Source of the DNA: Elusimicrobia bacterium GWD2_63_28
GTDB lineage: Bacteria; Elusimicrobiota; Elusimicrobia; Elusimicrobiales; UBA9959
NCBI GenBank assembly: GCA_001799895.1
Contig: MGUI01000015.1
Coordinates: 20,338 to 84,337 of the forward strand
Reading direction: 5' to 3'
Length of the DNA stretch: 64,000 nucleotides
Positions within the stretch are counted from its first letter, which is position 1. Every line of letters starts with the position of its first letter. The notes under the pieces were generated by a model, which worked only from the letters and a program-made list of their open reading frames with translations, was not told the origin of the DNA and did not search any database. Below are positions 6,128 to 33,923 of this stretch, piece by piece. The position numbers and the translations under genes are program-made.

Positions 6128-8703
<2,576 letters not shown>

Positions 8704-8707
<4 letters not shown>

Positions 8708-9654: not shown

Positions 9655-9690
9655 AATAGAATTGCGGACAACATGACAGGAGCGCCTACT

Positions 9691-12141: not shown

Positions 12142-12154
12142 TTCAAGGATCACC

Positions 12155-18697: not shown

Positions 18698-18797
18698 GGG
18701 GACGTTGTTGAGTTGTTGAGTTATTCACCGAGTCGCTATAAATTTGAGGTGTTTTGACATCTTACCGGAAATAACTCAACAACTCAACAACGTCCCC
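18698..18797. repeat. Palindromic intergenic element A: 28-bp perfect inverted repeat with 44-nt loop
   Basis: GGGGACGTTGTTGAGTTGTTGAGTTATT (18698-18725) pairs perfectly with AATAACTCAACAACTCAACAACGTCCCC (18770-18797). It is AT-rich relative to its surroundings and related to the element at 48000-48093. Confidence 0.85.
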
Positions 18798-20044
18798 GGA
18801 GTTCCCCGGAGTATCTTTCCTTTCTTGACCGTCATGGAGCACTGGTTCGCGCCGAAATAGTAGCACAGCTCGCGGTAATCGTACGCGGCGAAGAAGGCCA
18901 GGTCCGCCTGGCGGCCGGGCGCGATGACGCCGCAGCGGTCGCCTATGCCCAGCGCCCAGGCGCCGTTTACGGTGGCGGCGCAGAGGGCCTCCTCGGGGGT
19001 CATGGCGCAATGAGTGCAGGCGACGGAGAGCACGAACTGCATGTTCCAGCACGGGCAGGTGCCGGGGTTGAAATCTGTGGCCAGCGCCACCGGCACGCCT
19101 TCGGCTATCAGCTCGCGCGCGGGCGGAAATTTGGAGAGGCCCAGGTAATAATTTGAGGCGGGCAGGAGAGTGGCAATGGTGCCCGCGTCGCGCATGGCGG
19201 CTATGTCCTCGGCGTAGACGTGGTCCGCGTGGTCGGCGCTGACGGCCCCCGCGGCCGCGCCCGCCCTGGTGCCGCCGTAATTGGACAACTGCTCGGAATG
19301 CACCTTGGGCCGCAGGCCCAGGCGGGCGGCCTCTTTCAGGTAGGTTGTGGTCTGTTCCGGCGTGAAATAGCCTTTCTCGCAGAAGATGTCGGCGAAGACG
19401 GCCAGGCCTTCAGCCGCGGCTTTAGGCAGGATCTCGGCGATAATATGATCGAGATATTTCTGGGAATCCCCGTTGAACTCGGGCGGCACGCTGTGGGCGG
19501 CCAGCAGGGTGGGCAGCAGCTCCAGCGGCGTGAGTTTCCTGGCCTCGCGCACGGCCCGCAGCATCTTCAGTTCCGAATCCAGGGAGAGGCCGTAGCCGCT
19601 CTTGACCTCGGCGGTGGTGGTGCCGCATTCCAGGAAGCGGGCGGCGCGCCTGGCCAGCTGCGCGGCCATCGGCTTGAGCGGCTGTTTGCGCACGGCGCCG
19701 ATGCTGGAGAGTATCCCCCCGCCGGCGGCCTTGATCTCCGGGTAGGAGGCGCCGGCGGTGCGCATGGAGAAATCCTTCAGACGCGGCTCGGCGAAGATCA
19801 TGTGGGTGTGGCTGTCCACGAAGCCGGGCAGGCAGACGCCGCCGGTCTCGACCACCTTCGCAGTTTTCGCCAGGCGGTGCCGGGCCACGGCGGCCCTGGG
19901 GCCGGCGGCCTCGACTATGCCCTTCTCCACGAGCACGGCCCCGTTCTTGACGAGGCCGATTTCGCGCATGGCCGCCCCCGCGCGGGGCGCGTCGTCCCCG
20001 GCGAAGGTCAGCAGCTGCTTTATGCCCGTGAAGAGTATGGCCAT
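18776..20044 (-). CDS. hutI: Imidazolonepropionase
   Basis: 422 aa. PGFVDSHTHMIF, GGGILSS, HSEQLS, ADHADH and ATDFNPG motifs. The last 7 codons and the TGA stop lie inside the right arm of palindromic element A. Confidence 0.9.
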   Translation of the reverse strand: MAILFTGIKQLLTFAGDDAPRAGAAMREIGLVKNGAVLVEKGIVEAAGPRAAVARHRLAKTAKVVETGGVCLPGFVDSHTHMIFAEPRLKDFSMRTAGASYPEIKAAGGGILSSIGAVRKQPLKPMAAQLARRAARFLECGTTTAEVKSGYGLSLDSELKMLRAVREARKLTPLELLPTLLAAHSVPPEFNGDSQKYLDHIIAEILPKAAAEGLAVFADIFCEKGYFTPEQTTTYLKEAARLGLRPKVHSEQLSNYGGTRAGAAAGAVSADHADHVYAEDIAAMRDAGTIATLLPASNYYLGLSKFPPARELIAEGVPVALATDFNPGTCPCWNMQFVLSVACTHCAMTPEEALCAATVNGAWALGIGDRCGVIAPGRQADLAFFAAYDYRELCYYFGANQCSMTVKKGKILRGTPGTLLSC

Positions 20045-20541
20045 CAGCGGAAGTTGTCGAACTGCAGGGTTATGCCGTAATCCCCGCCCCGCAGCAGGCT
20101 CATCACGTTCTGCAGCTCGTCCTTGGACTTGGAGGTCACGCGCAGCGTGTCGGCCTGAATGGAGACATTGGCCTTCAGCTTGGCGTCCTTCACGGCCCGG
20201 ACTATCTCCTTGGCCTTGTCCTGAGGGATGCCCTGCTGCACTTTCACGACCATCTTGGCGGTGCCGCCCAGTGCGCTCTCCACCTTCTGGGCCTCGAAAT
20301 TCTTCACCGGCAGGCCGCGCTTGGAGACCTTCATCATCAGCACTTCGAGGAGTGCCTTGACCTTGTAGTCGTCTGAAGACTGCAGCATGATCTTGTTCTC
20401 CTTCTTGTCGAAGTTGATCTCGGACTTGGAGTCCTTAAAATCGTAGCGGTTGACCACTTCCTTCATGGCGATGGCTATCGCCTCGTCCACCACCGTGTAC
20501 TCCACCTTGGAAACCACGTCGAAGCTGAAATCAGAAGCCAT
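20044..20541 (-). CDS. yajQ: YajQ family nucleotide (cyclic-di-GMP)-binding protein
   Basis: 165 aa. SFDVVSKVE...RYDFKDSKSEI...VSKRGL...LKANVSIQADTLRVTSKSKDELQ...LQFDNFR matches the UPF0234/YajQ pattern along its full length. AGGAGA SD. Confidence 0.85.
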   Translation of the reverse strand: MASDFSFDVVSKVEYTVVDEAIAIAMKEVVNRYDFKDSKSEINFDKKENKIMLQSSDDYKVKALLEVLMMKVSKRGLPVKNFEAQKVESALGGTAKMVVKVQQGIPQDKAKEIVRAVKDAKLKANVSIQADTLRVTSKSKDELQNVMSLLRGGDYGITLQFDNFR

Positions 20542-20558
20542 AATTATTCTCCTATGTT

Positions 20559-22208
20559 TTACTTAAGCATCGGGACTTTGACGCCTTTCTTTTTGGCGAA
20601 GTCCGAGGCGATCTTGTAGCCGGCGTCGGCGTGGCGCAGCACGCCCATGGCCGGGTCGTTGGTCAGCACGCGCTCCAGGCGCGAGGCCATTTCTCTCGTG
20701 CCGTCCGCCACGGTAACCTGGCCGGCGTGCAGGGAATAGCCCATGCCCACCCCGCCGCCGTGGTGGAAAGACACCCAGCTGGCGCCGGACGCGGTGTTGA
20801 TCAGCGCGTTCAGGATCGGCCAGTCGGCTATCGCGTCTGAGCCGTCCTTCATGGATTCCGTCTCGCGGTAGGGGCTCGCCACCGAGCCCGAATCCAGGTG
20901 GTCGCGTCCTATCACTACGGGCGCGGAGATCTTCCCCTTCTTCACCAGGTCGTTGATGCGCAGCCCCATCTGGTGCCGCTCGCCGTAGCCCAGCCAGCAG
21001 ATGCGCGAAGGCAGGCCCTGGAACTGCACCTTCTTCGAGGCCATGTCCATCCAGCGCCTCAGGTGCTCGTCCTTCGGGAACAGGTCCAGCACCAGTTTGT
21101 CGGTGACGGCTATGTCCTTCGGGTCGCCGGAGAGGGCCGCCCAGCGGAACGGGCCTTTGCCCTCGCAGAACAGGTCGCGGATGTAGGCCGGCACGAAGCC
21201 GGGGAAGTCGTAGGCTTTTTTCACGCCCTGCTTGAAGGCCATCGTGCGGATATTATTGCCGTAGTCGAAGGTGACGGCCCCGGCCTTCTGCAGCTTGAGC
21301 ATGGCCTCGACGTGGATGGCGATGGATTCCATCGAGAGCTTAAGGTATTTCTTCGGGTCTTTGCGACGCAGGGCGTCGGCTTCCTTCACGCTGTAGCCCC
21401 TGGGGATATAGCCCTTCAGCGGGTCGTGCGCGGAGGTCTGGTCGGTGAGCACGTCTATCTTCACGCCGCGGCGCGCCAGTTCGGGCAGCACCTCGGCGCA
21501 ATTGCCCAGCAGGCCGATGGAGAGCGGCTGGCGGGCCTTCATGGCCTTCTGCGCCAGGACCAGCGCCTCGTCGAGATCGCGGCTCATGATGTCCACGTAC
21601 CTGGTGTCCAGGCGCTTCTGTATGCGGGTTTCGTCCGCCTCTATCACTATGGCCACGCCGCCGTTCATGGTGACGGCCAGCGGCTGGGCGCCGCCCATGC
21701 CGCCCAGGCCGCCGGTGACGGTCAGCTTGCCCGTAAGGTCGCTCTTAAAATGTTTGCGGGCGCAGGCGGCGAAGGTTTCGTAGGTGCCCTGCAGTATGCC
21801 CTGCGTGCCGATATAGATCCAGGAGCCGGCCGTCATCTGGCCGTACATCATCAGGCCCTTCTTCTCCAGCTCGTCGAAGGTTTCCCAGTTGGCCCAGTTG
21901 CCCACCAAATTGGAATTGGCGATGATCACGCGCGGCGAGTATTCGTGGGTGCGCAGCACGCCCACGGGCTTGCCGCTCTGCACCAGCAGGGTTTCGTCGT
22001 TCTCCAGTTTCCGGAGCGAGGAAACGATGGCGTGGTAGCAGTCCCAGTTGCGGGCGGCCTTGCCGCGCCCGCCGTAGACCACCAGGTCTTCCGGGCGCTC
22101 GGCCACATCCGGGTCCAGGTTGTTCATCAGCATGCGCAGGGCGGCCTCCTGCTGCCATCCTCTGCAGGAAAGTTTATTGCCGCGCGCGGCCCGTATGATC
22201 TTATTCAT
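20559..22208 (-). CDS. hutU: Urocanate hydratase
   Basis: 549 aa. Canonical [50 protein letters not shown] and [13 protein letters not shown] motifs. GGAGGAGG SD. Confidence 0.95.
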
Positions 22209-22290
22209 AGAAATAGTGTGCCTCCTCCGGAAAGACGGCTATAGTGATATTTTATGTTTTCTGCGGGCCTCGGGGAAGCCCGGCGGCGTG

Positions 22291-24048
22291 TCAGGCTGAC
22301 AATAGTTCGCGGTCAGCAAAAATATCGCTTTCGCGGGCCTTGATGTAGACCCTGATGGCGTAATTGAAATAGAGCTCACGAACAAGCTTCTGCTCCGGAG
22401 TCTTTTCAAACCTGTCCCAGCCCAGCGCCGCGTCCAGGCCGCGCTGCAGTTCCGGCAGGTTCTCAGCCGAGACCTTGTCGGCCGCCGCCAGACTGCCGTC
22501 CGTAAAAGTAAAATCGCAATAACAGTTCAGGTCGCCTTTGAAAGGTCCGGGGACGATCCCGTACTTGGGCGCGTTCTTATAAGTTTCGGCCTGCGGCAGC
22601 AGGTTGAGGCGGCCTATATGGTAGGTTACCCGGGGCAGGTCCTTGAGAGTCTCCGCTATGAACGCCGCGGTGGTCTTCGCCTCCTCCGGAGTTTCTCCCG
22701 GGAAGCCGGTGATGAAAGTGAGGTGCTGCCCCAGGCCCGCCGCGGCGGCCGCTTTTATCACCGCCCGGGTGGTCTCCGCGGGCACGGGGTCGGGGTACTT
22801 GCGCATCAGGGCCTGCACGCGCGGGACCACGGTCTCCACGCCGAAAAAGATCTCGCTGCAGCCGGCCCGCTTGATCTTATTCAAAAGCTCGTCGGGGTGC
22901 CGGGCGTCCAGCCGGCAGCGGCAGCCCCACTTGATGTCGAGGCCCTTGGCCAGCACCAGGTCCGAGAAATGGTTCAGCAAATCCGGATGCACCGCCTCGT
23001 CCTCGAAGTAAAAATATTTGTAGCCGAGCCGGGCCAGCCGCTCTATCCTGGGGAAAGTCGCGTCGATGTCGGCCTTCTCCGGCGCGGCGCCGCTCTGGTG
23101 CTTGGAATGCTGCGCGCAGAAGGCGCACTTGTTCCAGTAACAGCCCTTGCCGCTGAGGCGCAGCAGGAAGGAGGGCTCGGGCGTAAAGACATGCAGCAGG
23201 GGCGGGCAGGTTTCCCCGTCCGACGCCGGCGGCTCGCCGGTAAAGTCGGCGGCCGTCAGGAAGCCGGCAGGCCTCTTGCCCGCCGCCAGGTCGCGCAGCA
23301 GCAGCGGCATCACGCGGTCCGCCTCGTAGCTGTGCTTGATCACGGAATCTATCAGCTGGAACACGGCGCCTGTCCTGACTATGGCTTCGGCCTGCCAGTC
23401 CAGGGAAAAGTTCTCGTAGCCGGGGTCCGTGACGCAGATATATACGCCGGGATTCAGCTCCTTCAGGCATTGCGCCCAGACCAGGGCGGAAAGCAGGTCG
23501 AATTCCGACGTGACCGGGATAAAGCAGGCGTCCGGTGTGAAAGGCAGCTTTGCCGCCGCCGCCCTGTAGCTGGCGCGCAGGACAGTATCCTTGCCTGAGA
23601 AAGCCAGCATCTCCGCTGTTTCCCGGAAGCCCAACCCGTTTACGACCGGGCCGTTCTGTACGCCCACGGAGAATTCGTCCACCAGGAAATTGAAGACCCG
23701 CAGGTAGTCGGAAAAGGGCTTCAGGGCCGCGGCATAGGAGGCGGCCGAGGCGTAGGTGGCCGGGGCGCGCATAGCTTCCAGCGAGGCCCCGGCGCGGAGG
23801 GCCAGCTTTTCCAGTCCGGGGATCCCCGCGCTGGAGGACAGCTTCTCCGAAATGATCTTCGCCAGCGGCAGCTTCTCCGCCAGTATGCCGACGAAGGACG
23901 ACGAACAGAAAGCCCGCCACCACATCTCGTTGGCGTTGAAATACGCATACTCGTGCTCTTTGGAGGCGGCGGCGGCGTCCCACCATTTCCCCGGGTCGTG
24001 GACCAGGTTGGGCAGGCAGCCGGGCAGTATGGAGAAAAGTATTTTCAT
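22291..24048 (-). CDS. Radical SAM enzyme with class-B (B12-binding-like) architecture, RiPP island member
   Basis: 585 aa. Cluster motif GKGCYWNKCAFCAQH (23116-23142), followed by FYFEDEAV, IFFGVETV and other rSAM core elements. ATGA overlap with the M50 gene. GAGGAA SD. Confidence 0.75.
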   Translation of the reverse strand: MKILFSILPGCLPNLVHDPGKWWDAAAASKEHEYAYFNANEMWWRAFCSSSFVGILAEKLPLAKIISEKLSSSAGIPGLEKLALRAGASLEAMRAPATYASAASYAAALKPFSDYLRVFNFLVDEFSVGVQNGPVVNGLGFRETAEMLAFSGKDTVLRASYRAAAAKLPFTPDACFIPVTSEFDLLSALVWAQCLKELNPGVYICVTDPGYENFSLDWQAEAIVRTGAVFQLIDSVIKHSYEADRVMPLLLRDLAAGKRPAGFLTAADFTGEPPASDGETCPPLLHVFTPEPSFLLRLSGKGCYWNKCAFCAQHSKHQSGAAPEKADIDATFPRIERLARLGYKYFYFEDEAVHPDLLNHFSDLVLAKGLDIKWGCRCRLDARHPDELLNKIKRAGCSEIFFGVETVVPRVQALMRKYPDPVPAETTRAVIKAAAAAGLGQHLTFITGFPGETPEEAKTTAAFIAETLKDLPRVTYHIGRLNLLPQAETYKNAPKYGIVPGPFKGDLNCYCDFTFTDGSLAAADKVSAENLPELQRGLDAALGWDRFEKTPEQKLVRELYFNYAIRVYIKARESDIFADRELLSA

Positions 24049-25157
24049 TGTTTCCTCAGGGTGGCGTAACCTTCTTTAAAGCGGGGGATCAGGCCCTTGG
24101 CGACTATGACCAGGATATAGACGTTGATGAGCGCGCCCAGAACGCCGCCGCCGGACCAGGTCCCGGCGAAGAGAAAAGCGCCCAGGCCCTTGGCCATCAG
24201 CCAGACCACGTAGACCAGGTAAAGCGTGAACCCCAGCATGGCCAGGGAGTAGATCTTTTCGGAAAAGACCGCGTAGCGGTTGCCCTTGTAGGCGGTGACG
24301 ATATCCTTGTAGCACCAGTAGCCGTCGGTGTTAAGCAGCGGGTTCAGGTTGAAGAGCAGCAGGAAGGCCAGGTACTGCACCACCACGAAATAGGCGCCCC
24401 AGCCCGTGGCCAGGTAGGCGATGACCACGCCGGCCATGAAGAGGCTCTGCAGCGCGAGGCCAGCCAGGTTTATGGAGATCTTCGGCTTGAGCGGCAGCTC
24501 CCCGATGCCGGAGACATTGGCGTAAAAGACCGGGTACATCAGGTACAGGGAGAAACCTATGGGCCGGAAGCCGATGCCGTTGAGGTAGGCGAAGATGGAA
24601 TGCCCGGCCTCGTGCACCAGGATGCTCAGCAGTATTATCGCGAACACCGCGCCCTGCTCGCCCGCCGTGAGCGCTATCCCCCGCCCGGCGGAAAAGCCGG
24701 CGAAGGAGAAAAGCGCGGAGAGCAGCAGCCCGAGCAGGCAGCTGGCCAGCGCGAAGCGGAAAAGGGCCTCGCCGGTGAATTCCGCGTCCTTCAGGAAAAA
24801 GAAAACGCGGTCCTGCAGCTTCGAGGGGAAAAATTCCAGGGCCGGGTTCAGCAGGTATTTCAGGAGCGTCTTGTGCCAGGGGTTCTCGGAAGCCGGCACC
24901 AGGCACTTTATCTCCACCAGCTTGGCCAGTATTTTTTCCGGCTCGGGCACGCCCAGGCGGCGCAGCTCGCCGATATAGTCGGCGGGCGGCCCCTTGCGCG
25001 GCAGGCGTGAGATTATATTCTTGGTGGAGGCGCTTATCTTGAAGCAGGAATCCCCGGTGACGACCAGCCAGGAGCCGCCCCGGGGAACGGCGTAGTTATT
25101 CAGGAAAACGTTTTTCAGCGTCTCCGGCTTTTTTTCGGGCCCCGTGGTCTGGGTCAT
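24045..25157 (-). CDS. Membrane S2P/M50-type zinc metalloprotease with PqqD/RRE-like N-terminal domain
   Basis: 370 aa. HEAGH (ILVHEAGHSIFAY) plus the second S2P motif NLNPLLNTDG, with multiple TM segments. The N-terminal 95 aa (SWLVVTGDSCFKISASTKNIISRL...ADYIGELRRLGV..PEKILAKLVEIKCLV) follows the strand-strand-three-helix pattern of PqqD-like domains. Confidence 0.7.
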   Translation of the reverse strand: MTQTTGPEKKPETLKNVFLNNYAVPRGGSWLVVTGDSCFKISASTKNIISRLPRKGPPADYIGELRRLGVPEPEKILAKLVEIKCLVPASENPWHKTLLKYLLNPALEFFPSKLQDRVFFFLKDAEFTGEALFRFALASCLLGLLLSALFSFAGFSAGRGIALTAGEQGAVFAIILLSILVHEAGHSIFAYLNGIGFRPIGFSLYLMYPVFYANVSGIGELPLKPKISINLAGLALQSLFMAGVVIAYLATGWGAYFVVVQYLAFLLLFNLNPLLNTDGYWCYKDIVTAYKGNRYAVFSEKIYSLAMLGFTLYLVYVVWLMAKGLGAFLFAGTWSGGGVLGALINVYILVIVAKGLIPRFKEGYATLRKQ

Positions 25158-25164
25158 CTGGAGG

Positions 25165-26541
25165 CTAGTTGCCGGCCTTGGCCTTCTGGTTCTCCAGGTA
25201 GGAGAACCGTATGGCCTCCGCCAGGGACTCCCTGTGGTCGGCGCAGTCCGGCGCGAAGATGTCCTTGTACAAGACCCTGGCGTTATAGGCGCAGCTGCCG
25301 CCGCACAGCAGCGCGTAGGGGCAGTCCAGGCATTCTTTTATGCTGCTCACGTCGCGGGAAAGGTTCCGCTTCAGCGTATCCGTAAAGGTCACGCCGTCCT
25401 TCGTCACTTTGCCGAGCAGGTATTCCTCGCGGCCCGCCTCTACGGTGCAGCCGTAAAGCTCGCCGTTAGGGTCCAGGATGAAGGCGTTGGGCCTGTTGTG
25501 CATGCAGTGGGTGGTATGGGAAAGCCGCCGGTTCGGGGTGGCGAGGGTGTTTTTCATGTCCCAGACCCGCGAATTCAGCGGATAGCCGAACTTCGCGCTT
25601 ATCTCCCTGGCTATCGGGTGCGTGACGTCGATGTGCTGGGTAAGCTTGGTTGGGTCCGTGGCCGTATAGTCCCTGACCGGCGCCAGGTGCGGGAAGCAGC
25701 GCGGGTGCCCCACTATGTCCTGCTCTATCAGGTAATCCACCGTATCGCGCAGCGCCGCGTAGTTGTCGCCTATGACGTGCATTCGGATGGCTACGGTAGC
25801 TTTTTTGTCCAGCATCAGGTGGATGTTGGAGATGATCTTCTGGAACTTCGCGCCCTCGGAGCGCTGCAGCGAGGCGCCCTTATAGCCGCCCGCGTCGAGC
25901 GTGACCTGCACGCTGTTGATATTGCCGGGCAGCGGGCCCAGCATGTCGGCCACGCACTCTATGGTGCTGCAGTTGGAGATGGCGGAGGTCCGGATGCCGT
26001 ATTTCGCCGTGTACTCCATTATTTTGCGTATTATCGGCGCGTTGGACGGCTGGAACGGCTCCCCGCCGTAAAGCGTGATGTCCATATCGTGCGGCTTCAC
26101 TCCGGGGAAGATGGCGGAGAAATGTTTATTGAACACCAGGTCCAGCAGCTCGTCGGAGATCTTGGGGCCCCACTTGCGCGGCTTCAAATCTTTCTGGTAG
26201 CAGTACTCGCAGGAGAGGTTGCAGTCGTAGCCCAGCAGCAGCATCAGGACCGCCGAGCTCGTGACCGACTCGAGGTTCTCCTTGTGCAGCACGGCGACGC
26301 GCTTCGCGAATTCCGCCCTTTCCGTGTCGGGCGGCAGCTCCGTGACGTGGCCTCTTTTTTTAAAGAAAGCCAGCTCGTTTTCGGAGATAAAATCCAGGCT
26401 GCCGCCGTCTTTAGCCTGGCGCATTTTTTCGGCGAAATCTTTGCGGACCACGTCCACGTTCCCGGAAAAGCCGTTGAACAGCAGGACCTTGTCGTCGAGG
26501 TTTATCAGCGCCAGGTAGCGGCTAAGATAGGATTTTTTCAT
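25165..26541 (-). CDS. Radical SAM/SPASM-domain peptide maturase
   Basis: 458 aa. CNLSCEYC (CX3CX2C), and a C-terminal Cys-rich auxiliary-cluster region CMHNRPNAF..GELYGC...CLDCPYALLCGGSCAYNA...C. An N-terminal ~100 aa extension is typical of peptide-binding rSAM maturases. Confidence 0.85.
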   Translation of the reverse strand: MKKSYLSRYLALINLDDKVLLFNGFSGNVDVVRKDFAEKMRQAKDGGSLDFISENELAFFKKRGHVTELPPDTERAEFAKRVAVLHKENLESVTSSAVLMLLLGYDCNLSCEYCYQKDLKPRKWGPKISDELLDLVFNKHFSAIFPGVKPHDMDITLYGGEPFQPSNAPIIRKIMEYTAKYGIRTSAISNCSTIECVADMLGPLPGNINSVQVTLDAGGYKGASLQRSEGAKFQKIISNIHLMLDKKATVAIRMHVIGDNYAALRDTVDYLIEQDIVGHPRCFPHLAPVRDYTATDPTKLTQHIDVTHPIAREISAKFGYPLNSRVWDMKNTLATPNRRLSHTTHCMHNRPNAFILDPNGELYGCTVEAGREEYLLGKVTKDGVTFTDTLKRNLSRDVSSIKECLDCPYALLCGGSCAYNARVLYKDIFAPDCADHRESLAEAIRFSYLENQKAKAGN

Positions 26542-28195
26542 AGAATTTACCCTGTTTCACGGCCTCGGAGTATTCGTGCGCGGCCAGGAAGCGCTCTTCC
26601 GCCAGCGTCGAGAAAGCGCCGGCCGGCTTCGGCTTGAAGTAGCGGTGATATTTCCCTTCGTAGAGGTACTGGTCTTCGCCGTCCAGGTAAGCCTCGGCCT
26701 TCTGCTTTATTTCCGGCAGTTTTTTGACATGCGCCTCGTAGGCCGGGCCCGACAGCCCCAGGGCGTCGGCGAGACCGCCGCCGTTCATCCCGGCGAGCAG
26801 GCAGAACCTGAGCCCGTCGGCAACGTGCCTGGCGCGCTTCGCCGGCAGGGCTAAGGAATTCAGCGCGCCAAGCGCGAAAGAATACAGCAGTTCCCCGGCG
26901 AGCAGCTGCTTGAGCTCACCCCCCGGCCTGTCGGGAGATATAAAGATCGTCCCGTTCCCGGCGCTGAAGACCCGGGCGTTGCCCATCAGCAGGCTTACCA
27001 CCTTAAGCTTCCCTGTCCTGAAAAAGAGGCCGTTCGGGAAAGATTTCTCCACCAGGTCCCTGGCCCGGGCCGCGAGGGACTCTATTTCGGCGGGGCTTAA
27101 AGAGGCCGGCACGCCGCCGGCCTGCAATTTGAGGCGCAGTTCCTCGAACTCGGCCCCGCCCGCTTTGGAGCGGGCCAGGCCGTGGCGGGCGAAAACGGCC
27201 GCAAGCCGCGGCAGGCCGCCGGTAAGGAAGCCGGCGAAATCTGAGGCCTCGTTCACTATCGCCGCTATCTCCGCCGTCTCGTCCGCCACCTGTACGCCCT
27301 CCGGCTCCGAAGCAGCGGGGGCCGACCCGCGCGCGGCTTCAGCGAAGGCCTTTGCGGCCTTGCCCACAAAAACCGCATAGTCGTCCAGTTCGGCGGCGGG
27401 AATAGCTTCTGGCAGGAACATATTGACCCCGTTGCCGTTGGCCATGTTCGAGACGCTCAGCCAGACGGAAAGCGGGCCGGCGGCCTGCCCGCCTAGGGCG
27501 GAGAGGTCGGTGAGGAGCTTGCGGCTTTTCAGGTCAAAGAAACCGTAGCGGGCGCCCGCCCCCGGTTCCTCGAAAGAGTCCAGCTCTACCCTGGCGAGGC
27601 CGGCTTCCTCAGGTAATGGGGAGGAGGAAAGCCAGGCGCAGCAGGCCCCGCTTTTAGCCAGCTGCAAGGCCAGGGCCGCGTTGGCCAGCGAAGAGAGGTT
27701 CCAGCCGGAGATATTTTCAGGTGAGGACGAGAATTCGGCCGGGTGGCAGACCGCCGGCTCTTTAGCCGCCGCCAGGATCTTTTCTTTTTCAGCGCCGGGC
27801 AGGAAATAGAGTACGGCGCCGTCTTTGCCCGTAGAGACGTGTTCGACGGCAAGCTCGAACAGCTTCTCCCCGGTTTCCGCGGCGTAAACGCCTAACGACC
27901 GGCCGAGCAGCCCGCCGGGCTTGGGATAGCCGGAAACCGCGGCGAAGAAATATTTCCCTTCGGGCCCGCGCTTCAGCAGGCCGCCGGGGCCGGCGAGCCG
28001 GGCGCAGACGCAGACCTTGCCCGGCTTGACAACTTCCGGCGACTCCGCGCCCACGAAAACGCCCCCGCCCGGGGCGAAGAAATGCGGCATGCCCGCCAAT
28101 ATCTCCCGAAGCGGCAGAGAATGTTCCGGCTGCTTTAGCCCGGGAACGATACGGCAGGATGAAAGTTTCTTAAGAAGGTCGAGGTATTCAGTCAT
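26522..28195 (-). CDS. Hypothetical 557-aa protein of the RiPP island (no domain recognised)
   Basis: Long ORF co-directional with the island genes. Its 3' end overlaps the SPASM gene start by 20 nt. Coding-like amino-acid composition, and no motif I can name. Confidence 0.6.
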   Translation of the reverse strand: MTEYLDLLKKLSSCRIVPGLKQPEHSLPLREILAGMPHFFAPGGGVFVGAESPEVVKPGKVCVCARLAGPGGLLKRGPEGKYFFAAVSGYPKPGGLLGRSLGVYAAETGEKLFELAVEHVSTGKDGAVLYFLPGAEKEKILAAAKEPAVCHPAEFSSSPENISGWNLSSLANAALALQLAKSGACCAWLSSSPLPEEAGLARVELDSFEEPGAGARYGFFDLKSRKLLTDLSALGGQAAGPLSVWLSVSNMANGNGVNMFLPEAIPAAELDDYAVFVGKAAKAFAEAARGSAPAASEPEGVQVADETAEIAAIVNEASDFAGFLTGGLPRLAAVFARHGLARSKAGGAEFEELRLKLQAGGVPASLSPAEIESLAARARDLVEKSFPNGLFFRTGKLKVVSLLMGNARVFSAGNGTIFISPDRPGGELKQLLAGELLYSFALGALNSLALPAKRARHVADGLRFCLLAGMNGGGLADALGLSGPAYEAHVKKLPEIKQKAEAYLDGEDQYLYEGKYHRYFKPKPAGAFSTLAEERFLAAHEYSEAVKQGKFYEKILS

Positions 28196-28207
28196 AGTTT
28201 AAATTTA

Positions 28208-28239
28208 AAGTCCCCACAAAACAGGGTTTATGGGGACTT
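28208..28239 (-). terminator. Hairpin (attenuator/partial terminator) between precursor genes and maturase genes
   Basis: AAGTCCCCA (28208-16), 14-nt loop, TGGGGACTT (28231-39). On the minus-strand RNA it is followed by UUUAAAUUUAAACU and then the AUG at 28195. Confidence 0.5.
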
Positions 28240-28348
28240 GGATGAAAGACCGGTTTTTCGGCGGCGCGTCACATCTTATCGTTCATTGCCCGGCCCCTGC
28301 TATTTCTATTTTATCTTAATCACCGCGGGCAGTAAAGAAGCGCCCCTC

Positions 28349-28558
28349 TCAACCGCGCACGGCGGATGGCATGTTTCCCGGGCGCGTCTCTATTTTTTTC
28401 AGGATGCAGTCGCAGAGGGATCCGTAAACGCCGTCATTGTTCTTGCTGCCGGCCGTTAGGACGGCAGTAAAAGACAGGCGCCTGTCCAGTTCGGCCACCA
28501 GCAGGTCCTCTTCCGCCAGGAACTCCACCGATTCTATTATGTTGGATTCGCTCTTCAT
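28349..28558 (-). CDS. RiPP precursor peptide P1 (69 aa)
   Basis: MKSESNIIESVEFLAEEDLLVAELDRRLSFTAVLTAGSKNNDGVYGSLCDCILKKIETRPGNMPSAVRG. ATG 28558 with GAGGA SD, 11 nt after the P2 stop. The track N-terminal extension to 28651 is rejected because it overlaps P2. Confidence 0.85.
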   Translation of the reverse strand: MKSESNIIESVEFLAEEDLLVAELDRRLSFTAVLTAGSKNNDGVYGSLCDCILKKIETRPGNMPSAVRG

Positions 28559-28569
28559 TTGATCCTCAC

Positions 28570-28785
28570 TTATCCGCGCACAGCGGATGCCAGGTTGCCG
28601 CACGGGCGTGGCTCGAATTTCTTCAGGATGCAGTCGCAGAGGGATTCGCAATGTCCGTTATTGTTCCTGGAACAGGCCTCCAGGACTAAAGCGGAAAACG
28701 ACAGCCTCTTATCCAGCTCGGCCACCAGCAGGTCGTCAGCGGCCAGGAACTCCACCGATTCTATTATGTTTGATTCTTTGCTCAT
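28570..28785 (-). CDS. RiPP precursor peptide P2 (71 aa)
   Basis: MSKESNIIESVEFLAADDLLVAELDKRLSFSALVLEACSRNNNGHCESLCDCILKKFEPRPCGNLASAVRG. ATG 28785 preceded by AAGGGGGA. Confidence 0.85.
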   Translation of the reverse strand: MSKESNIIESVEFLAADDLLVAELDKRLSFSALVLEACSRNNNGHCESLCDCILKKFEPRPCGNLASAVRG

Positions 28786-28814
28786 ATTTCCCCCTTCTGC
28801 GCTCTTCATGACTA

Positions 28815-28837
28815 ATACGGAACAATTTTAATGCCAG
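28815..28837 (-). promoter_or_regulatory. Conserved 23-nt upstream element, copy 1 (sigma54-like -24/-12 spacing)
   Basis: Minus strand reads CTGGCATTAAAATTGTTCCGTAT. It is identical to the copy at 29383-29405 while the flanks differ. It reads TGGCAT-N5-TTGT against the sigma54 consensus TGGCAC-N5-TTGC. Lies ~37 nt upstream of the P2 ATG. Confidence 0.45.
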
Positions 28838-28890
28838 AGATATTCGCGTGCCGCTCTGCTATTATCTCCGCCTGGCCATGACGCCACTTA

Positions 28891-28924
28891 TTTTCACATG
28901 AAAATGTATATTTTCATATGAAGA
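28891..28924. promoter_or_regulatory. Two phased palindromic boxes upstream of the P2-P1 element (candidate regulator/activator binding site)
   Basis: TTTTCACATGAAAA (28891-28904) and TTTTCATATGAAGA (28911-28924, core TTCATATGAA). Their starts are 20 bp apart, and they lie 55-90 bp upstream of the 23-nt element. Confidence 0.4.
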
Positions 28925-28949
28925 TATTTCAGGCGCCGGGGCGTTAAAC

Positions 28950-29159
28950 TCAACCCCTTACGGCGCTGACGCCGCTGGCCTGGTTCGCGCAGTCAAATGA
29001 CTTAGCGAAGCAACCGCAGATGCCGCCACCGAAGCCGGTGCAGCTCTTGCCCGTATCCCCCAGAGCCGTAAAGGAAAGGCGCTTGTCCAGCTCGGCCACC
29101 AGCAGGTCGTCCGCGGCCAGGAACTCCACGGATTCGATTATGTTCGTTTCGTTCTTCAT
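28950..29159 (-). CDS. RiPP precursor peptide P3 (69 aa)
   Basis: MKNETNIIESVEFLAADDLLVAELDKRLSFTALGDTGKSCTGFGGGICGCFAKSFDCANQASGVSAVRG. AAGGAA SD, 11 nt after the P4 stop. Confidence 0.85.
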   Translation of the reverse strand: MKNETNIIESVEFLAADDLLVAELDKRLSFTALGDTGKSCTGFGGGICGCFAKSFDCANQASGVSAVRG

Positions 29160-29170
29160 AACATTTCCTT

Positions 29171-29347
29171 TTATCCCCTAACGGCTGAAGGCTGGCTTGG
29201 TCCCTGGGGAACATTATAAGTGTAGCCGACACAATCACAAACTCCCGGAACCGATACAAAGGACAGCCTCTTGTCCAATTCCGCGACCATCAAATCCTCT
29301 TCCGACAGGAATTCCACCGATTCAATTATGTTGGTTTCTTTTTTCAT
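29171..29347 (-). CDS. RiPP precursor peptide P4 (58 aa, not in the ORF track)
   Basis: Hand translation of the minus strand from ATG 29347 gives MKKETNIIESVEFLSEEDLMVAELDKRLSFVSVPGVCDCVGYTYNVPQGPSQPSAVRG, with TAA at 29173-29171. AAGGTGA SD. Same leader, CxC motif and SAVRG tail as P1-P3. Confidence 0.8.
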   Translation of the reverse strand: MKKETNIIESVEFLSEEDLMVAELDKRLSFVSVPGVCDCVGYTYNVPQGPSQPSAVRG

Positions 29348-29382
29348 ATTTTCACCTTAGATCTGATTTTAGCCTGCGCCCG

Positions 29383-29405
29383 ATACGGAACAATTTTAAT
29401 GCCAG
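29383..29405 (-). promoter_or_regulatory. Conserved 23-nt upstream element, copy 2
   Basis: Same 23-mer CTGGCATTAAAATTGTTCCGTAT on the minus strand, ~43 nt upstream of the P4 ATG. Confidence 0.45.
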
Positions 29406-29488
29406 CATTCAATAGCCCCCCCCATCGAAAAGGCCATCCTGCCGGGGCAACGGCCCCGGTCAAGGAAAGATTATTTAAGTGTCGGAGT

Positions 29489-31063
29489 TTACGCGCCGGA
29501 CATCTGCTTCAGGTCGGCCAGGACGGCTTCCTTGGCGTAATTGAAATGCAGGTCCGCGCGTTCTTTGGCCAGGGCGGCCCTGGCTGAGGGGTTGGAATGG
29601 TCGGCCTTCACAAGGTCGGCTATGAGGCGCAGGACGCTCATATCGCTTATGATCTTTGCCTGCGTAAGAGCGTTGCGCTCCTTGTAGGGCTCTATGGCCG
29701 CCTCAAGGATGAAGGCGTAGATGCGCCTGTAAAGGGCGTCCGCCTGCTCCCAGATAAAGCCTACGGCAGGGTCTTTGAAGCGGTACTGCAGGTAAAGCGT
29801 CTCAATGCCGGCGCCTGTAAGATCGGCGCTCTTCTCGAACAGCCCTTCGGCCTTTATATCCGCCAGGGCCTTGGTATAGATATGGGCCTTCATGCGGTAG
29901 GCGCCGTAAGAGAAATGCTCCAACCCCACCTTCACCATGAAGTTGGCCGAGCGCACCAGGTCCGGCACGGTGGTCCAGGGGGTGAAAAAGATGTAGCCGC
30001 AGTCGAAATGCACTTTTTCCGCGTTAAGGATATTAACGGCTTCGCAGATCTCAGCCACGGTGATCTTCTTGTTGAACGCCTCCAGTTCGGAAGCGTTAAT
30101 TGACTCTACGCCGATGAAGAGGCCGGTCAGGCCGCAGGCCTTCAGGATCTTCAGGCGGGGCGCGGTAATGTCGTTCACGCGGCAGGCGATGAAGAAACCG
30201 ATCTCCAGGCCCCGCTTTTTTATTTCGGCGCTGAAGTCTTCCAGGTATTTATCGGCGGCGCCGGCATCGGCGGACGGGAAGAAATTGTCGGCCTGGAAAT
30301 TAAAGTGGCGGCAGCCGGCCCTATAGAGCTCCTCCACCTCGTCGAAGAAAGAATTCAGGGACCTGCGGCGTATGGCGGAATGGCCGGAAAGGCCGTAAAA
30401 CTCCTGCAGGGCGCAGAACGAACAGCGCCCGTAGCAGCCCCTGGCTAGCTCCACCGGCTGCATGCCCCCCGTGCCGCCGTAACGCAGCGGGCGGGGCAGG
30501 GCGTCCAGGTCGCCGGTGACGCGGACATGCGGATTTTTAACCAGTGCGCCATCTTTCCCGGGGTAGATTATCCCGCTGGTAGCGCGCCAGTCGCGGCCTT
30601 CCCTGAGGTTGGCCGCCAGTTCGCAGGCGGCGGCTTCGCCGTCGCCGTAAACTATGGAATCGAAGTAAGGAAACTTTGAGAACAGCAGTTCCGCGTAAAG
30701 CGAGGCAAAGGCCCCGCCGGCCGTGATATGCTGTTTGCAGCCGGCGGCCCGCAGCTTTTTAATTATCCTTATCGCCGGGCCCAGGTTGTAGATATTCAGG
30801 GAAAAGCCGAGGCAGTTAAAATCGCTTTGAGCTGCCAGCGCCACGGTCTCGTCGACCGAAAGCCTCTCGAAATTAGAATCTATGATCCTGAAACTGACGC
30901 CTTTTTCCCGCAGGTAGGCGGCCAGCGCGCCCAGGCCCAGGTTGAGCTGCTCCTCCTGGCGCTCGTAATACTTGTAGAACATCTCCTGCGGATGTTCTAT
31001 TTCTATGGAGGGATTGAGCAGCAGCAAGTCGACTTTCCCGCCTGGGCCGCCGGTTTCGTTCAT
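29489..31063 (-). CDS. B12-binding-domain radical SAM enzyme (class B), RiPP island member
   Basis: 524 aa. An N-terminal Rossmann-like B12-type domain (VDLLLLNPS...GLGALAAYLREKGVSFRIID) and the cluster motif LARGCYGRCSFCAL (CX3CX2C). Starts 19 nt after the hutH stop. Confidence 0.8.
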   Translation of the reverse strand: MNETGGPGGKVDLLLLNPSIEIEHPQEMFYKYYERQEEQLNLGLGALAAYLREKGVSFRIIDSNFERLSVDETVALAAQSDFNCLGFSLNIYNLGPAIRIIKKLRAAGCKQHITAGGAFASLYAELLFSKFPYFDSIVYGDGEAAACELAANLREGRDWRATSGIIYPGKDGALVKNPHVRVTGDLDALPRPLRYGGTGGMQPVELARGCYGRCSFCALQEFYGLSGHSAIRRRSLNSFFDEVEELYRAGCRHFNFQADNFFPSADAGAADKYLEDFSAEIKKRGLEIGFFIACRVNDITAPRLKILKACGLTGLFIGVESINASELEAFNKKITVAEICEAVNILNAEKVHFDCGYIFFTPWTTVPDLVRSANFMVKVGLEHFSYGAYRMKAHIYTKALADIKAEGLFEKSADLTGAGIETLYLQYRFKDPAVGFIWEQADALYRRIYAFILEAAIEPYKERNALTQAKIISDMSVLRLIADLVKADHSNPSARAALAKERADLHFNYAKEAVLADLKQMSGA

Positions 31064-31082
31064 AATTAAACCCGCCGGCCGG

Positions 31083-32609
31083 TCAGGGGACGAAATAGCC
31101 GTTCAGCACCGCGTCGGCCACGGCCTCTATGCGGCCGGAGAAGACCTCGTCGCCCTTGAAGGCGGGGGAGATCTTGCGGAGCTGCGCGAGGGCGGCCTCC
31201 ACGCGGGCGCCCGACTTGAGCGGGCGGTGGAACTCCACGCCCTCGGCGGCGGCCATCAGCTCTATGGCGGTTATGCACGCCACGTTGCGCACCACGGTGC
31301 GCAGTTTCAGCGCGGCGTTCATGCCCATGCTGACGAAGTCCTCCTTGTTGGCGGAGGTGGGGATGGAATCGGCGCTGGCCGGGTGGCTGAGGATCTTGTT
31401 CTCGTTGCAGAGCGCGGCGGCGGTGACGTGCGCTATCATGAAGCCCGACTCCAGCCCCGGGTTGCGGGCCAGGAAAGGCGGCAGGATCTCGAAGTCGCTG
31501 ACCAGCTGGGCGGTGCGTCGCTCGGAGATATTGCCGAGGGCCGTGAGGGCGATGGCGGCGAAGTCGGAGGCGAAGGCCACGGCCTGGCCGTGGAAGTTGC
31601 CGCCGGAGATGACGTCTATGGAGCCGCGCGTTTTTCCCTCTACCACCAGGGGGTTGTCGGTGACGCTGCCCAGCTCCGTCTCGAAAACGTTCAGCGCGTA
31701 CTCGATGGCGTCGCGGGCGGCGCCCATGGCCTGCGGCATGCAGCGCAGGCAGTAAGGGTCCTGCACGCGCTTGTCGGCCGTCTTGTGCGAGGCGCGGATC
31801 TGGCTGCCCTTCAGCATGGACTCCAGCATCTCCGCCACCTCGAGCTGCCCGGGATGCGGCTTCAGCTCGTGGATGCGCTTGTCGAAGGCGGAAGGGGTGC
31901 CCTTCAGCGCCTCCACGCTCATGGCCCCGGCGAGCACGGAGGAATAGAACAGGTTCATGGCCTCGAAGAGCGCCAGGCCGCCGACGGCCTTCATGGCCTG
32001 AGTGCCGTTGATCAGGGCGAGGCCCTCTTTCTCAGCCAGCTCTATCGGTTTTATGCCGGCTTCCTTCAGCACCTCGGCGGAAGGGCGCCAGTCGCGCTCG
32101 TCCTCGAACTTGGCCATGCCCTCGCCTATCAGGGTCAGCGCCATGTGGGCCGACGGGGCAAGGTCGCCGCTGGCGCCTACCGAGCCCTTGGACGGGATGA
32201 ACGGGATAACGCCCTTGTTGACGAGGGCCGAAAGGGTTTTAACCACCACCGGGCGCACGCCGGAGTTGCCGCGGGCTAGCTCGTTGGCCCGGGCGAAGAT
32301 GAGGCCGCGGGCCTCGGCGTCGTCGAGCGGGTCGCCTACGCCGCAGGCGTGGCTGCGGATCAGGTTCACCTGCAGGCTCTTCAGGCTTTCGCGCGAGACG
32401 CGCTGGCTGGCCAGCTCGCCGAAGCCGGTGTTGATGCCGTACATCACGCGGTCCTCGGCCAGCAGCGCCTCCAGCGCTTTGCGCCGGGACTCTATAAGTT
32501 TAAGGGCCTTGGGCGGGATCTCGGTCTTGCGGTAGCCGAAGGCCACCTCGGCGAAGTCCACTATATCCGGGGCCGAACCGAGGCTGAAAGGCTTGTTCTT
32601 TGCGCTCAT
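31083..32609 (-). CDS. hutH: Histidine ammonia-lyase
   Basis: MIO-forming GSVGASGDLAPSAH motif, with full-length HAL-like sequence. I prefer ATG 32609 (GGAGGA 8 nt upstream, ATGA overlap with the upstream gene) over 32627. Confidence 0.95.
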   Translation of the reverse strand: MSAKNKPFSLGSAPDIVDFAEVAFGYRKTEIPPKALKLIESRRKALEALLAEDRVMYGINTGFGELASQRVSRESLKSLQVNLIRSHACGVGDPLDDAEARGLIFARANELARGNSGVRPVVVKTLSALVNKGVIPFIPSKGSVGASGDLAPSAHMALTLIGEGMAKFEDERDWRPSAEVLKEAGIKPIELAEKEGLALINGTQAMKAVGGLALFEAMNLFYSSVLAGAMSVEALKGTPSAFDKRIHELKPHPGQLEVAEMLESMLKGSQIRASHKTADKRVQDPYCLRCMPQAMGAARDAIEYALNVFETELGSVTDNPLVVEGKTRGSIDVISGGNFHGQAVAFASDFAAIALTALGNISERRTAQLVSDFEILPPFLARNPGLESGFMIAHVTAAALCNENKILSHPASADSIPTSANKEDFVSMGMNAALKLRTVVRNVACITAIELMAAAEGVEFHRPLKSGARVEAALAQLRKISPAFKGDEVFSGRIEAVADAVLNGYFVP

Positions 32610-33199
32610 GATGTTTTTCCTCCGCATTTTTCCGAAAGGTCCTTCACGGTCGCCACCCCGGCGGCCCTGAAGGCGGTTATGAAATGTTCAAAGATCTTGC
32701 GCGTCATTTCCACGTCGGCGAGCGCGCGGTGCCAGCCCTGGCTGGAGATGTTGAGTTCGGCGGCGATATTGCCCAGCCGGTTGCTCTGGAACTTCCAGTT
32801 CTTGCGGGCTATGGCGAGGGTGTCCACCACGTGCAGCTTCGGGAACTTAAGCCCGACCCGTTTGAATTCTTCCCGCAGGAAGCCCAGGTCGAAGTCGGCG
32901 TTATGCGCCACCACGACGGCGTTCTCCAGCAGGTCCAGCAGGCGCGGCGCCACCTGGCCGAAGGACGGGCTGTCCTTGACCATGGCGTCGGTGATGCCGT
33001 GGATCTTGGAGACCTCCGCGGGGATAGGCACGCCGGGGTTGACCAGCTCGGACAGCGTTCCCACGCGGGCAGCTCCCAGGAAACTGACGGCGGCCACCTC
33101 GCAGACGCGAGCCGACCGCGGGGAAAGCCCGGTGGTCTCCACGTCGATGAAGGTAAAGACGGCTTCTTCTATTTTTTGTTTCTCTATTACTTCCAGCAT
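32606..33199 (-). CDS. DEDD 3'-5' exonuclease (DNA polymerase III epsilon-like)
   Basis: 197 aa. ExoI FIDVETTGL, ExoII VVAHNADFDLGFL, ExoIII HRALADVEMT. Confidence 0.8.
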   Translation of the reverse strand: MLEVIEKQKIEEAVFTFIDVETTGLSPRSARVCEVAAVSFLGAARVGTLSELVNPGVPIPAEVSKIHGITDAMVKDSPSFGQVAPRLLDLLENAVVVAHNADFDLGFLREEFKRVGLKFPKLHVVDTLAIARKNWKFQSNRLGNIAAELNISSQGWHRALADVEMTRKIFEHFITAFRAAGVATVKDLSEKCGGKTS

Positions 33200-33209
33200 G
33201 TCCGCCTTG

Positions 33210-33923
33210 TTATAAATAGCCGTAATACACGAACCTGGTGCAGGCGCCCAGCAGCGCGGCGATAACCACGCTGAGCCAGACGTTAATGCCGCTCAGGTCC
33301 ATGATGCGCTTGCGCCTGATGTAGAAGAGCTGCGCCGCCCAGATGATGGCGAAGGGGATCCACCAGCGCCCCTCGGCGAAGAAGAAGGCCCACAGCACCA
33401 CCCGCTCGAAGATCAGGAAATATTTCTCGTCGAAGCTGGGGAAGGGCTTGCCGAACAGGTCCTTCTCTACGAAGTAGATCAGCACCGTGGTGGAATGCGT
33501 CACCAGCACCAGCATGGAGGCGATAGCCGCCCACTTGTCCCCCATCAGCAGGTCGGGGCCTGGCATCACGACGGGCGCTATCATGAACAGCACGTAGAAA
33601 TGCAATACCTGGTCGGCCAGGAAGCTGGCGGTATTGTCCTTCCAGCCCAGGGTCTTCATGCTGTAGACCCGCAGCTGGTCCACGATGAAGTGGATGGCCA
33701 TCATCAGCAGCAGGGCGCCCCAGCCGCTGACCGCCACGCCGCCTGCGCTGAACCAGGTCTCCGGGAGATAGTCCCAGACCAGCGCGGCGGACACGATGAA
33801 GTGGGTCAGGCAGTGCAGCAGCATGCCCCACAGGTTCTTGCGCTTCATGCGGTTCACGACGTCAAACTGCAGCGTGAAGTCCGCGAGAAGGTGCGAAAGT
33901 ACCAGGCGCCAGAAGATTACCAT
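33210..33923 (-). CDS. DUF3307-like integral membrane protein
   Basis: 237 aa. N-terminal LSHLLADFTLQ motif, conserved His residues, about 7 TM segments. Confidence 0.55.
   Translation of the reverse strand: MVIFWRLVLSHLLADFTLQFDVVNRMKRKNLWGMLLHCLTHFIVSAALVWDYLPETWFSAGGVAVSGWGALLLMMAIHFIVDQLRVYSMKTLGWKDNTASFLADQVLHFYVLFMIAPVVMPGPDLLMGDKWAAIASMLVLVTHSTTVLIYFVEKDLFGKPFPSFDEKYFLIFERVVLWAFFFAEGRWWIPFAIIWAAQLFYIRRKRIMDLSGINVWLSVVIAALLGACTRFVYYGYL

Follow-up and report, generated by a model that had tools for sequence, protein, structure and literature searches.

A peptide-maturation island between hutH and hutU in Elusimicrobia and its probable exchange by recombination through the flanking hut genes

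How did a peptide biosynthesis cluster come to lie between two genes of histidine breakdown that stand side by side in related genomes? The question is raised by a stretch of 64,000 nucleotides (nt) from contig MGUI01000015.1 of the groundwater Elusimicrobia bacterium GWD2_63_28, referred to here as the window, in which genes were identified from an open reading frame (ORF) map and from Pfam and NCBIfam scans. On one strand throughout, the minus strand, the window carries hutH, an 8.8-kb island of five enzyme and four precursor genes for a ribosomally synthesized and post-translationally modified peptide (RiPP) (22291-31063), hutU, yajQ and hutI; all features of the window given below lie on this strand. 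The left flanking gene, encoding the histidine ammonia-lyase HutH (31083-32627, with the public gene call starting from 32609), reached 620 bits against the TIGR01225 cut-off of 539 and has the Ala-Ser-Gly triad of the methylidene-imidazolone (MIO) cofactor at residues 152-154, while the right flanking gene, encoding the urocanate hydratase HutU (20559-22208), reached 972 bits against the TIGR01228 cut-off of 375. As read from the sequence, 19 nt (31064-31082) separate the hutH stop from the first island gene and 82 nt (22209-22290) separate the last island gene from hutU. Both gaps, the single strand and all the gene identities and coordinates given in an earlier note on this DNA were reproduced exactly. 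The answer that we consider probable is that the hutH-hutU spacer is a recombination hotspot free of mobile elements, placed inside an operon and filled with versions of one RiPP cluster.

The hutH-hutU junction with and without the island

A scan for HutU with one genome per species yielded 47 loci from Elusimicrobia and 33 from Acidobacteriota, onto which all window proteins were mapped; 43 of the Elusimicrobia loci were informative and four were uninformative. The island proteins had no match at any of the 80 loci, even at an E value of 1e-3 (within 10 kb of hutU for the 47 Elusimicrobia). In 31 species hutH was followed by hutU at 16-214 nt (median 29), and these empty junctions contained just a ribosome-binding site. 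Wherever the island is missing from the loci surveyed, hutH and hutU therefore stand directly side by side, and the claim of the earlier note that an accessory cassette splits a contiguous pair is borne out by synteny, since the island was present in none of the 43 informative species.

The conserved Elusimicrobia array runs cyclase-DUF3307-RNase T-hutH-hutU-yajQ-hutI-HAD-SIS. The slot left of hutU is variable in ways beyond the island. Between the RNase T gene and hutU, six species (L003, L008 at 8411-9943, L011, L025, L027 and L035) carry a histidine/aromatic ammonia-lyase that is 36-38% identical to the usual HutH, and six others (L024, L030, L032, L040, L046 and L047) have no lyase at all. 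The array has another small insertion point: the hutU-yajQ gap measures about 620-665 nt in nine species (L022 at 11653-12255, L007, L011, L017, L018, L027, L028, L037 and L043), where it holds a gene of about 600 nt; in L022, the sole locus of these that was read, the 200-amino-acid (aa) product has a signal peptide and an LAGC lipobox and is a putative lipoprotein. The position of yajQ between hutU and hutI, which the earlier note had called atypical, is so only against textbook organisms, as nearly all Elusimicrobia species have the order hutU-yajQ-hutI. In some Acidobacteriota/Terriglobia (L051, L064 and L067), hutU has a yajQ homologue with 42-43% identity about 4 kb upstream, which hints at a wider association of yajQ with hut genes.

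The same site holds a diverged or re-tooled island in at least five other metagenomic lineages (L083, L091, L092, L093 and L097), with hutH on the left and hutU on the right in every version with a readable flank. The further versions were found with a profile of the precursors, and L083 via a relative 55% identical to a 557-aa protein of the island. L083 contains a whole island on a contig whose ends encode the C-terminus of HutH and the N-terminus of HutU. L091 runs hutH, a B12-binding radical S-adenosylmethionine (SAM) gene, a second such gene in reverse, a precursor and a 557-like gene; L092 runs from an IS30-like transposase through YcaO, precursor, YcaO, 557-like, SPASM, protease and radical SAM genes to hutU-yajQ; L093 has hutH, YcaO, two precursors, the core and hutU; and L097 has hutH, a reversed B12-binding radical SAM gene, a precursor, the core without the protease and hutU. 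In L094-L096 the flanks are cut off by contig ends. At least four architectures are represented, namely those with a forward B12-binding radical SAM gene, with a forward and a reverse copy, with one or two YcaO genes, and with a reverse copy and no protease. The core that is kept comprises the precursor or precursors, the 557-aa family, the SPASM radical SAM enzyme, usually the HExxH protease and the last radical SAM protein, and the left module (B12-binding radical SAM or YcaO) is exchangeable. The window has four precursors, each of the other versions one or two.

Protein identity among island versions is 28-76%, with the window island 55-76% identical to that of L083; for the B12-binding radical SAM protein the values are 75% to L083 and 50-51% to L091. 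The third radical SAM gene, the last of the island, adjoins hutU in every version with a readable right flank and is also last in L094, where the flank is cut; in L083, L092, L093, L094 and L097 this place is taken by homologues of 38-76% identity, and elsewhere only remote relatives (about 30%) were found, in unrelated contexts. Metagenome scans returned no relative with the B12-binding radical SAM protein as query and, with a profile of the third radical SAM protein, a single 34%-identical gene in an unrelated context (L087). The remote homologues of the latter protein, from Binatia and another metagenome-assembled genome (MAG), were considered as a clue to the origin of the island and proved uninformative, sitting in unrelated clusters.

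The arrangement in the window has independent assembly support. An identical hutH was found on eight contigs from at least six independent groundwater assemblies (JGI 3300025309, JGI 3300001041, several ENA assemblies and one NCBI Elusimicrobia MAG), and the island adjoins hutH in all eight, which rules out a chimeric assembly as the source of the arrangement.

Probable recombination through the flanking genes

In gene trees the window was sister to L029 for hutH (bootstrap support 100 of 100), for the upstream genes (95) and for yajQ, hutI and the HAD and SIS genes combined (92). In the hutU tree its partner was L001/L002, or L014, with a support of at least 93 of 100, and its hutU is 95-96% identical to the L001/L002/L014 type compared to 86-89% for the backbone relatives L029, L028, L022 and L026. 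HutU falls into these two types, and because the L029 copy stays with the backbone relatives of L029, it is the window copy that was replaced. Sites shared by the window with L029 only or with L001 only numbered 186 and 57 in hutH, 55 and 149 in hutU, and 33 and 12 in yajQ; hutH and hutU differ strongly in these counts (Fisher p 2e-26), recombination being judged at this locus only.

The ends of the foreign tract can be placed. hutH remains L029-like until about 8 nt before its stop codon, its last codons reading ..GTC CCC TGA in the window versus ..GTA GAG GAT TAA in L029, the nearest relative. The L001-like signal runs through hutU and the hutU-yajQ spacer, and the sites turn from L001-like to L029-like in the 5' part of yajQ, at about nt 105-175 of that gene (20366-20436). 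The imported tract thus measures about 10.7 kb and includes the last hutH codons, the island, hutU and about 100-170 nt of yajQ. Because the boundaries of the tract coincide, we infer that the island and the foreign hutU allele arrived in a single event.

Comparable discontinuities occur in other versions. In L092, the island has a guanine-plus-cytosine (GC) content of 40-42% compared to 65% in hutU, which from codon 14 on shares 98.4% nucleotide identity with the island-free L015 and is low in GC over its first 14 codons. The L097 island, at 40-49% GC, lies between hut flanks of 60-62% GC that are 96-99% identical in protein to those of island-free species. The host of L093, judged from a 96-residue fragment of HutH, is nearest L029 (89%) and the window (87%), and the island cores of L093 and the window are only 37-48% identical. 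Island and host relationships disagree in these comparisons.

Composition within the window itself is less divergent. GC content is 0.51-0.56 over the precursor segment (about 28.25-29.75 kb) versus 0.63 for the whole window, in agreement with the earlier description of this segment as more AT-rich than its neighbours. In codon usage the island genes resemble the other genes (Karlin B 0.24-0.28 versus 0.27 +/- 0.11; GC at third codon positions 0.77-0.85 versus 0.84 +/- 0.09), so that foreign composition was found in L092 and L097 and not in the window, where only the precursor segment is AT-richer. The host-like codon usage therefore means that the island has long been resident in a high-GC genome or came from a donor of similar composition. 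Depending on the version, the island is about 3 to 23 points lower in GC than its hut flanks, a spread that fits acquisitions of different ages and would also be compatible with an old presence/absence polymorphism in which loss occurs by reverse recombination. The insertion proposed in the earlier note holds as far as an accessory cassette splitting the hut pair is concerned; a one-off insertion it is not, given that the same site is filled in at least five other lineages and that codon usage in the window island is host-like.

No integrase or transposase domain was found in Pfam scans of the island genes, ten neighbouring ORFs and the upstream genes, no repeat family has members at both 22.2-22.3 kb and 31.06-31.09 kb, and there is no transfer RNA (tRNA) or transfer-messenger RNA gene, and no Rfam match, in the 64-kb window. 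The earlier report of no mobility signature therefore stands, extending to integrases, transposases, bracketing repeats and tRNA genes. Taken together, the results on flanks, composition and mobility are consistent with double homologous recombination at the core genes on either side.

On this basis, we propose that a variable RiPP cluster would occupy one fixed spot in the clade, the short hutH-hutU spacer, and would be gained and swapped, and probably also lost, by homologous recombination through the flanking hut genes and not by an integrase or transposon. In the window lineage, where the mosaic itself is observed, a tract of about 10.7 kb would have imported the island with a foreign hutU allele, and the island would have taken on host-like codon usage after its arrival. 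Several points weigh against this proposal. No donor with a near-identical island was found, and the species representatives with window-type hutU are all island-free. The left breakpoint is a few bases from the hutH stop, which leaves little visible homology for the left crossover unless the donor hutH was L029-like, and hutU replacement and island arrival could be two separate events. In addition, the host assignment of L083 comes from just 15 and 14 flanking residues, the L092 contig could be chimeric (and, if genuine, leaves the direction of transfer ambiguous), and all of the genomes are metagenome assemblies.

There are several potential alternatives. The RiPP locus may have stood between hutH and hutU in the ancestor of the clade, diverged in place and been lost from most lineages, with the window retaining the ancestral state. 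Such vertical descent would account for the occupation of one site in at least six lineages with GC contents from about 45% to 63%, for the native codon usage of the window island genes, and for a divergence among versions (33-76% identity) that equals or exceeds the divergence of the least conserved flanking genes (58-64%). However, the presence of the island in none of the 43 species representatives would call for dozens of scar-free losses, each itself needing recombination with an empty allele, at which point the scenario merges into the recombination hotspot. The conflict between island and host relationships, the recombinant hutU beside the island and the placement of islands of 40-49% GC between flanks of 60-65% GC also argue against it, and we regard vertical descent as unlikely. 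It is very improbable that a transposon or integrative element favouring the hutH/hutU spacer brought the island and that its mobility gene was later lost from the window copy. The observation in its favour is an IS30-like transposase (HTH_38 and rve domains; L092:66-1070) at a contig end on the left edge of the YcaO island of L092, the only mobility gene seen beside any version; because its GC content is 55% versus 41% for the adjoining island, this transposase looks like a later arrival. The window, L083, L091, L093 and L097 versions lack an integrase or transposase, the window has no bracketing direct or inverted repeats and no tRNA, and the foreign tract spans all of hutU and reaches into yajQ, unlike the product of cut-and-paste transposition.

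It is also possible that the site was selected because peptide production and histidine catabolism are co-regulated, for example by read-through from hutH or because the last radical SAM gene and hutU function together. The first island gene starts 19 nt after hutH with no terminator between them; the last radical SAM gene, a conserved spacer and hutU are linked in every version with a readable right flank; and since integration in operons is generally rare (PMC5635113), persistence at this site invites a functional reason. Against such coupling, the gene adjacent to hutH varies (B12-binding radical SAM, YcaO or a gene on the opposite strand), the island carries promoter-like boxes of its own, most species do well without it, and a paralogous precursor locus in the same genome is unlinked to hut genes. 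As recombination through conserved flanks explains a fixed position without any function, selection for coupling seems to us a rather poor candidate. We accordingly retain the recombination hotspot as the probable account of the site.

Island genes, products and expression signals

Reading from hutH, the island opens with the variable left module, a B12-binding radical SAM gene (29489-31063; PF02310 and PF04055; CYGRCSFC motif), whose top NCBIfam scores fall far under all cut-offs. Four precursor genes follow: precursor A (29171-29347; 58 aa), which has the conserved leader, a Cys-containing core and a SAVRG C-terminus, and precursors B (28950-29159; 69 aa), C (28570-28785; 71 aa, a gene call taken from L101) and D (28349-28558; 69 aa). 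The precursors share the leader NIIESVEFLxxxDLxVAELDxRLSF, Cys-containing variable cores and a conserved x-x-R-G C-terminus (SAVRG in the window, CGVRG and similar elsewhere). The remaining enzyme genes are those for the orphan 557-aa protein (26522-28195), a core component found in every island version seen; a radical SAM/SPASM peptide maturase, also of the core (25165-26541; PF04055; TIGR04085 SPASM 46.9 bits versus a cut-off of 27; CNLSCEYC motif); a HExxH, M50-like membrane metalloprotease (24045-25157; PF02163 27.6 bits versus 27.2; HEAGH at residue 182); and the third radical SAM protein (22291-24048; 585 aa; PF04055). In the last of these, residues 303-311 read C-Y-W-N-K-C-A-F-C, a CX4CX2C motif in place of CX3CX2C that the window and L083 share unchanged.

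The enzymes resemble radical SAM/SPASM maturases, B12-dependent radical SAM methyltransferases and membrane HExxH leader peptidases, and none came up to the cut-off of a named curated maturase or protease. The SPASM enzyme did not reach any named maturase equivalog (CefB, PapB, SCIFF, geopeptide and others), its best score being 92 bits against the CefB cut-off of 600. The protease has weak similarity to the YydH/LiaK and daptide proteases (YydH/LiaK 39 versus 225 bits) and is a probable leader peptidase. No match to the 557-aa protein was found in Pfam, NCBIfam, PADLOC or PDB (best E value of a profile search against solved structures, 0.22), and the family is rare, with three clusters in 5.8 billion proteins and 24 representatives in 1.84 billion; a structure prediction from three sequences gave a mean predicted local distance difference test (pLDDT) score of 38.5 and is unusable. 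Judging from domain types only, the product may be a thioether- or carbon-cross-linked, possibly C-methylated, secreted peptide. A defence-island interpretation was discarded, as anti-phage models matched solely through generic radical SAM similarity. Nothing relevant was found in the literature on Elusimicrobia RiPPs or on yajQ with hutU.

A paralogous precursor lies on another contig of the same genome (L088:10001-10216), with the same leader and SAVRG tail and a near-copy of the upstream motif described below, TGGCATTAAAATTGTTCCG. Its neighbours encode a Peptidase_C11 protein, a 584-aa orphan, UbiA, a PEP-utilising enzyme and a CDP-alcohol transferase, and a pair of SPASM and protease genes is found 7 kb away on the other strand. 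The 584-aa protein was compared to the 557-aa protein as a potential relative and rejected (hhalign probability 4%).

Generic scans of the window gave seven weak promoter-like hits (3.9 +/- 1.8 expected) and 14 terminator-like hits (18.9 expected, and so not above chance), with no site of either kind at either junction. The hexamer TAAAAT occurs 25 times in the window, with 13 copies, oriented towards downstream genes, in the intergenic 6.1% of the DNA (binomial p 4e-10). The island region has five of the intergenic boxes: precursor A is preceded by two (at 29366 and 29393), precursor C by one (28825) and hutU by one (22249), 41 nt from its start codon, and the remaining box stands between the last precursor and a hairpin. 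Upstream of precursor A, a 23-nt motif with a TAAAAT box, CTGGCATTAAAATTGTTCCGTAT (29383-29405), has an exact second copy upstream of precursor C (28815-28837). This motif was also considered as a sigma-54 promoter, given its resemblance to the -24/-12 type, and is recorded instead as a conserved TAAAAT-containing element since it has GG-N10-GT and not GG-N10-GC. The box following the last precursor (28308-28313) is a candidate promoter of the enzyme genes, and a similar box is present in L084. A 13-bp hairpin, listed by the terminator scan and terminator- or attenuator-like, lies 14 nt upstream of the 557-aa gene (28210-28237); it folds in the window and in L083, where it is followed by U7, and the stem bases differ between loci while pairing is kept. 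L084 has the same inverted repeat, with altered bases that can still pair, but the minimum-free-energy fold of the folded stretch was paired otherwise. Between precursors B and C is an AT-rich, near-perfect inverted repeat, ATGAAAAT-ATAC-ATTTTCAT (28898-28917), in a spacer with unusually strong folding (z = -2.8); possible roles are those of an operator or an RNA element.

The spacer before hutU contains a two-box motif, GGCTTCCCCGA at 22270-22280 and CCGCAGAAAACATAAAATAT at 22247-22266, with the consensus sequences GGCTT(T/C)CC(T/C)GA and ATAAAAT(A/G)T. Both boxes are present in the window, L083, L093 and L092, and the TAAAAT box only in L097 and L094, so that this box occurs in all six versions; the boxes are kept although the coding genes are just 38-76% identical. 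The 20-mer CCGCAGAAAACATAAAATAT is unique within the window, and the exact 18-nt core of its TAAAAT box was found, among 86 loci, only in the window copies and L083. No comparable box was seen in the short hutH-hutU spacers of island-free genomes, and the 82-nt spacer has no terminator-like U-tract. This spacer is a candidate promoter for hutU-yajQ-hutI.

These signals suggest how the split operon could be transcribed. The B12-binding radical SAM gene starts 19 nt past hutH with no terminator in between, so read-through is likely, and this gene would be the sole island gene depending on the hutH transcript. The precursor and enzyme genes would start from their own TAAAAT-type promoters, with the hairpin ahead of the enzyme genes, and the promoter-like element at the right edge would restore transcription of hutU-yajQ-hutI, which would otherwise be cut off from the hutH promoter. 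It should be noted that the promoter and attenuator roles are assigned from motifs and folds, and that the box upstream of hutU lacks a good -35 hexamer, which also counts against this part of the proposal. The first island gene is reversed in L091 and L097, and read-through from hutH is therefore no general requirement. The co-transcription with histidine catabolism suggested in the earlier note is thus plausible only in part: read-through from hutH into the first island gene is likely, but TAAAAT boxes stand at the precursors, the 557-aa gene and hutU, and the first gene is reversed in two versions. A stronger proposal would make the island an operon-adapted allelic cassette, which would bring a replacement promoter for the downstream hut genes, have its left-most gene fed by the hutH transcript, wire a new class of radical-SAM-modified peptide to histidine catabolism and persist in different versions under bacteriocin-like diversifying selection. 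We consider this doubtful; if true, the island would be an operon-embedded allelic RiPP locus rather than the occupant of a passive hotspot.

In the window, the array upstream of hutH consists of genes for a CHASE2 adenylate/guanylate cyclase (33930-36149), a DUF3307 protein (33210-33923) and an RNase T (32606-33199). Downstream of hutU are yajQ (DUF520; 20044-20541; NF003819 179 bits versus a cut-off of 146; PF04461 184 bits) and the gene for the imidazolonepropionase HutI (18776-20044; TIGR01224 426 bits versus 298), followed by a HAD hydrolase gene and a gene for a SIS-domain protein. The cyclase and the nucleotide-binding YajQ are both clade-wide members of the co-directional hut array; binding of cyclic-di-GMP by YajQ is predicted from its family name only. 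A formiminotransferase-cyclodeaminase (FTCD) gene (41979-43469; FTCD_N, FTCD and FTCD_C domains) is found on this strand as well, some 9 kb upstream and thus not adjacent to hutH, with acyl-CoA dehydrogenase, electron transfer flavoprotein, histidine kinase and cyclase genes in between, and its product probably supplies the fourth step of histidine breakdown. No gene for a HutC- or HutP-type regulator was seen among the neighbours in the family scans.

Relation to known systems

Canonical hut operons have the order hutHUIG in enterics and Pseudomonas and hutPHUIGM in Bacillus. The window is similar in having full-length equivalogs of HutH, HutU and HutI on one strand, and differs from these operons in the presence of yajQ between hutU and hutI, in the placement of the array among unrelated conserved genes, and in having FTCD about 9 kb upstream instead of HutG, with no HutC or HutP seen nearby. 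Compared to SPASM RiPP clusters (ranthipeptide/SCIFF, the CefB 'Cys-every-fifth' type, geopeptide and Clo7bot) and to systems with YydH/LiaK (epipeptide) or daptide proteases, the island is alike in its small precursors with a conserved leader and Cys-rich variable cores, its SPASM radical SAM enzyme, its membrane HExxH protease and its extra tailoring enzymes (B12-binding radical SAM or YcaO). It differs from the SPASM clusters in the orphan 557-aa protein, the third radical SAM protein with CX4CX2C and the precursors ending in x-x-R-G.

The transfer mechanism itself is already known: hotspots of gene transfer that are free of mobile elements and diversify by double recombination at flanking core genes have been described (PMC5635113). 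New genes rarely integrate within operons (PMC5635113), and the position of the island is unusual for this reason. The window would provide a breakpoint-resolved example of a biosynthetic cluster moving between species of an uncultivated phylum without a mobile element, with catabolic genes as recombination arms, and the conserved promoter-like element at its edge suggests how the cost of splitting an operon may be offset. In addition, the hutH/hutU junction offers a simple marker for mining Elusimicrobia metagenomes for further versions of the cluster. Similar to the element-free hotspots (PMC5635113), the site is bounded by the same pair of core genes, is mostly empty, has varied content when filled and lacks an integrase or transposase, and the flanking core gene hutU is phylogenetically incongruent, with mapped breakpoints. 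It differs from those hotspots in lying inside a tight and presumably co-transcribed gene pair (median gap 29 nt), in that all filled versions belong to one RiPP family rather than being unrelated cargo, and in that exchange crosses species-level and GC-content boundaries.

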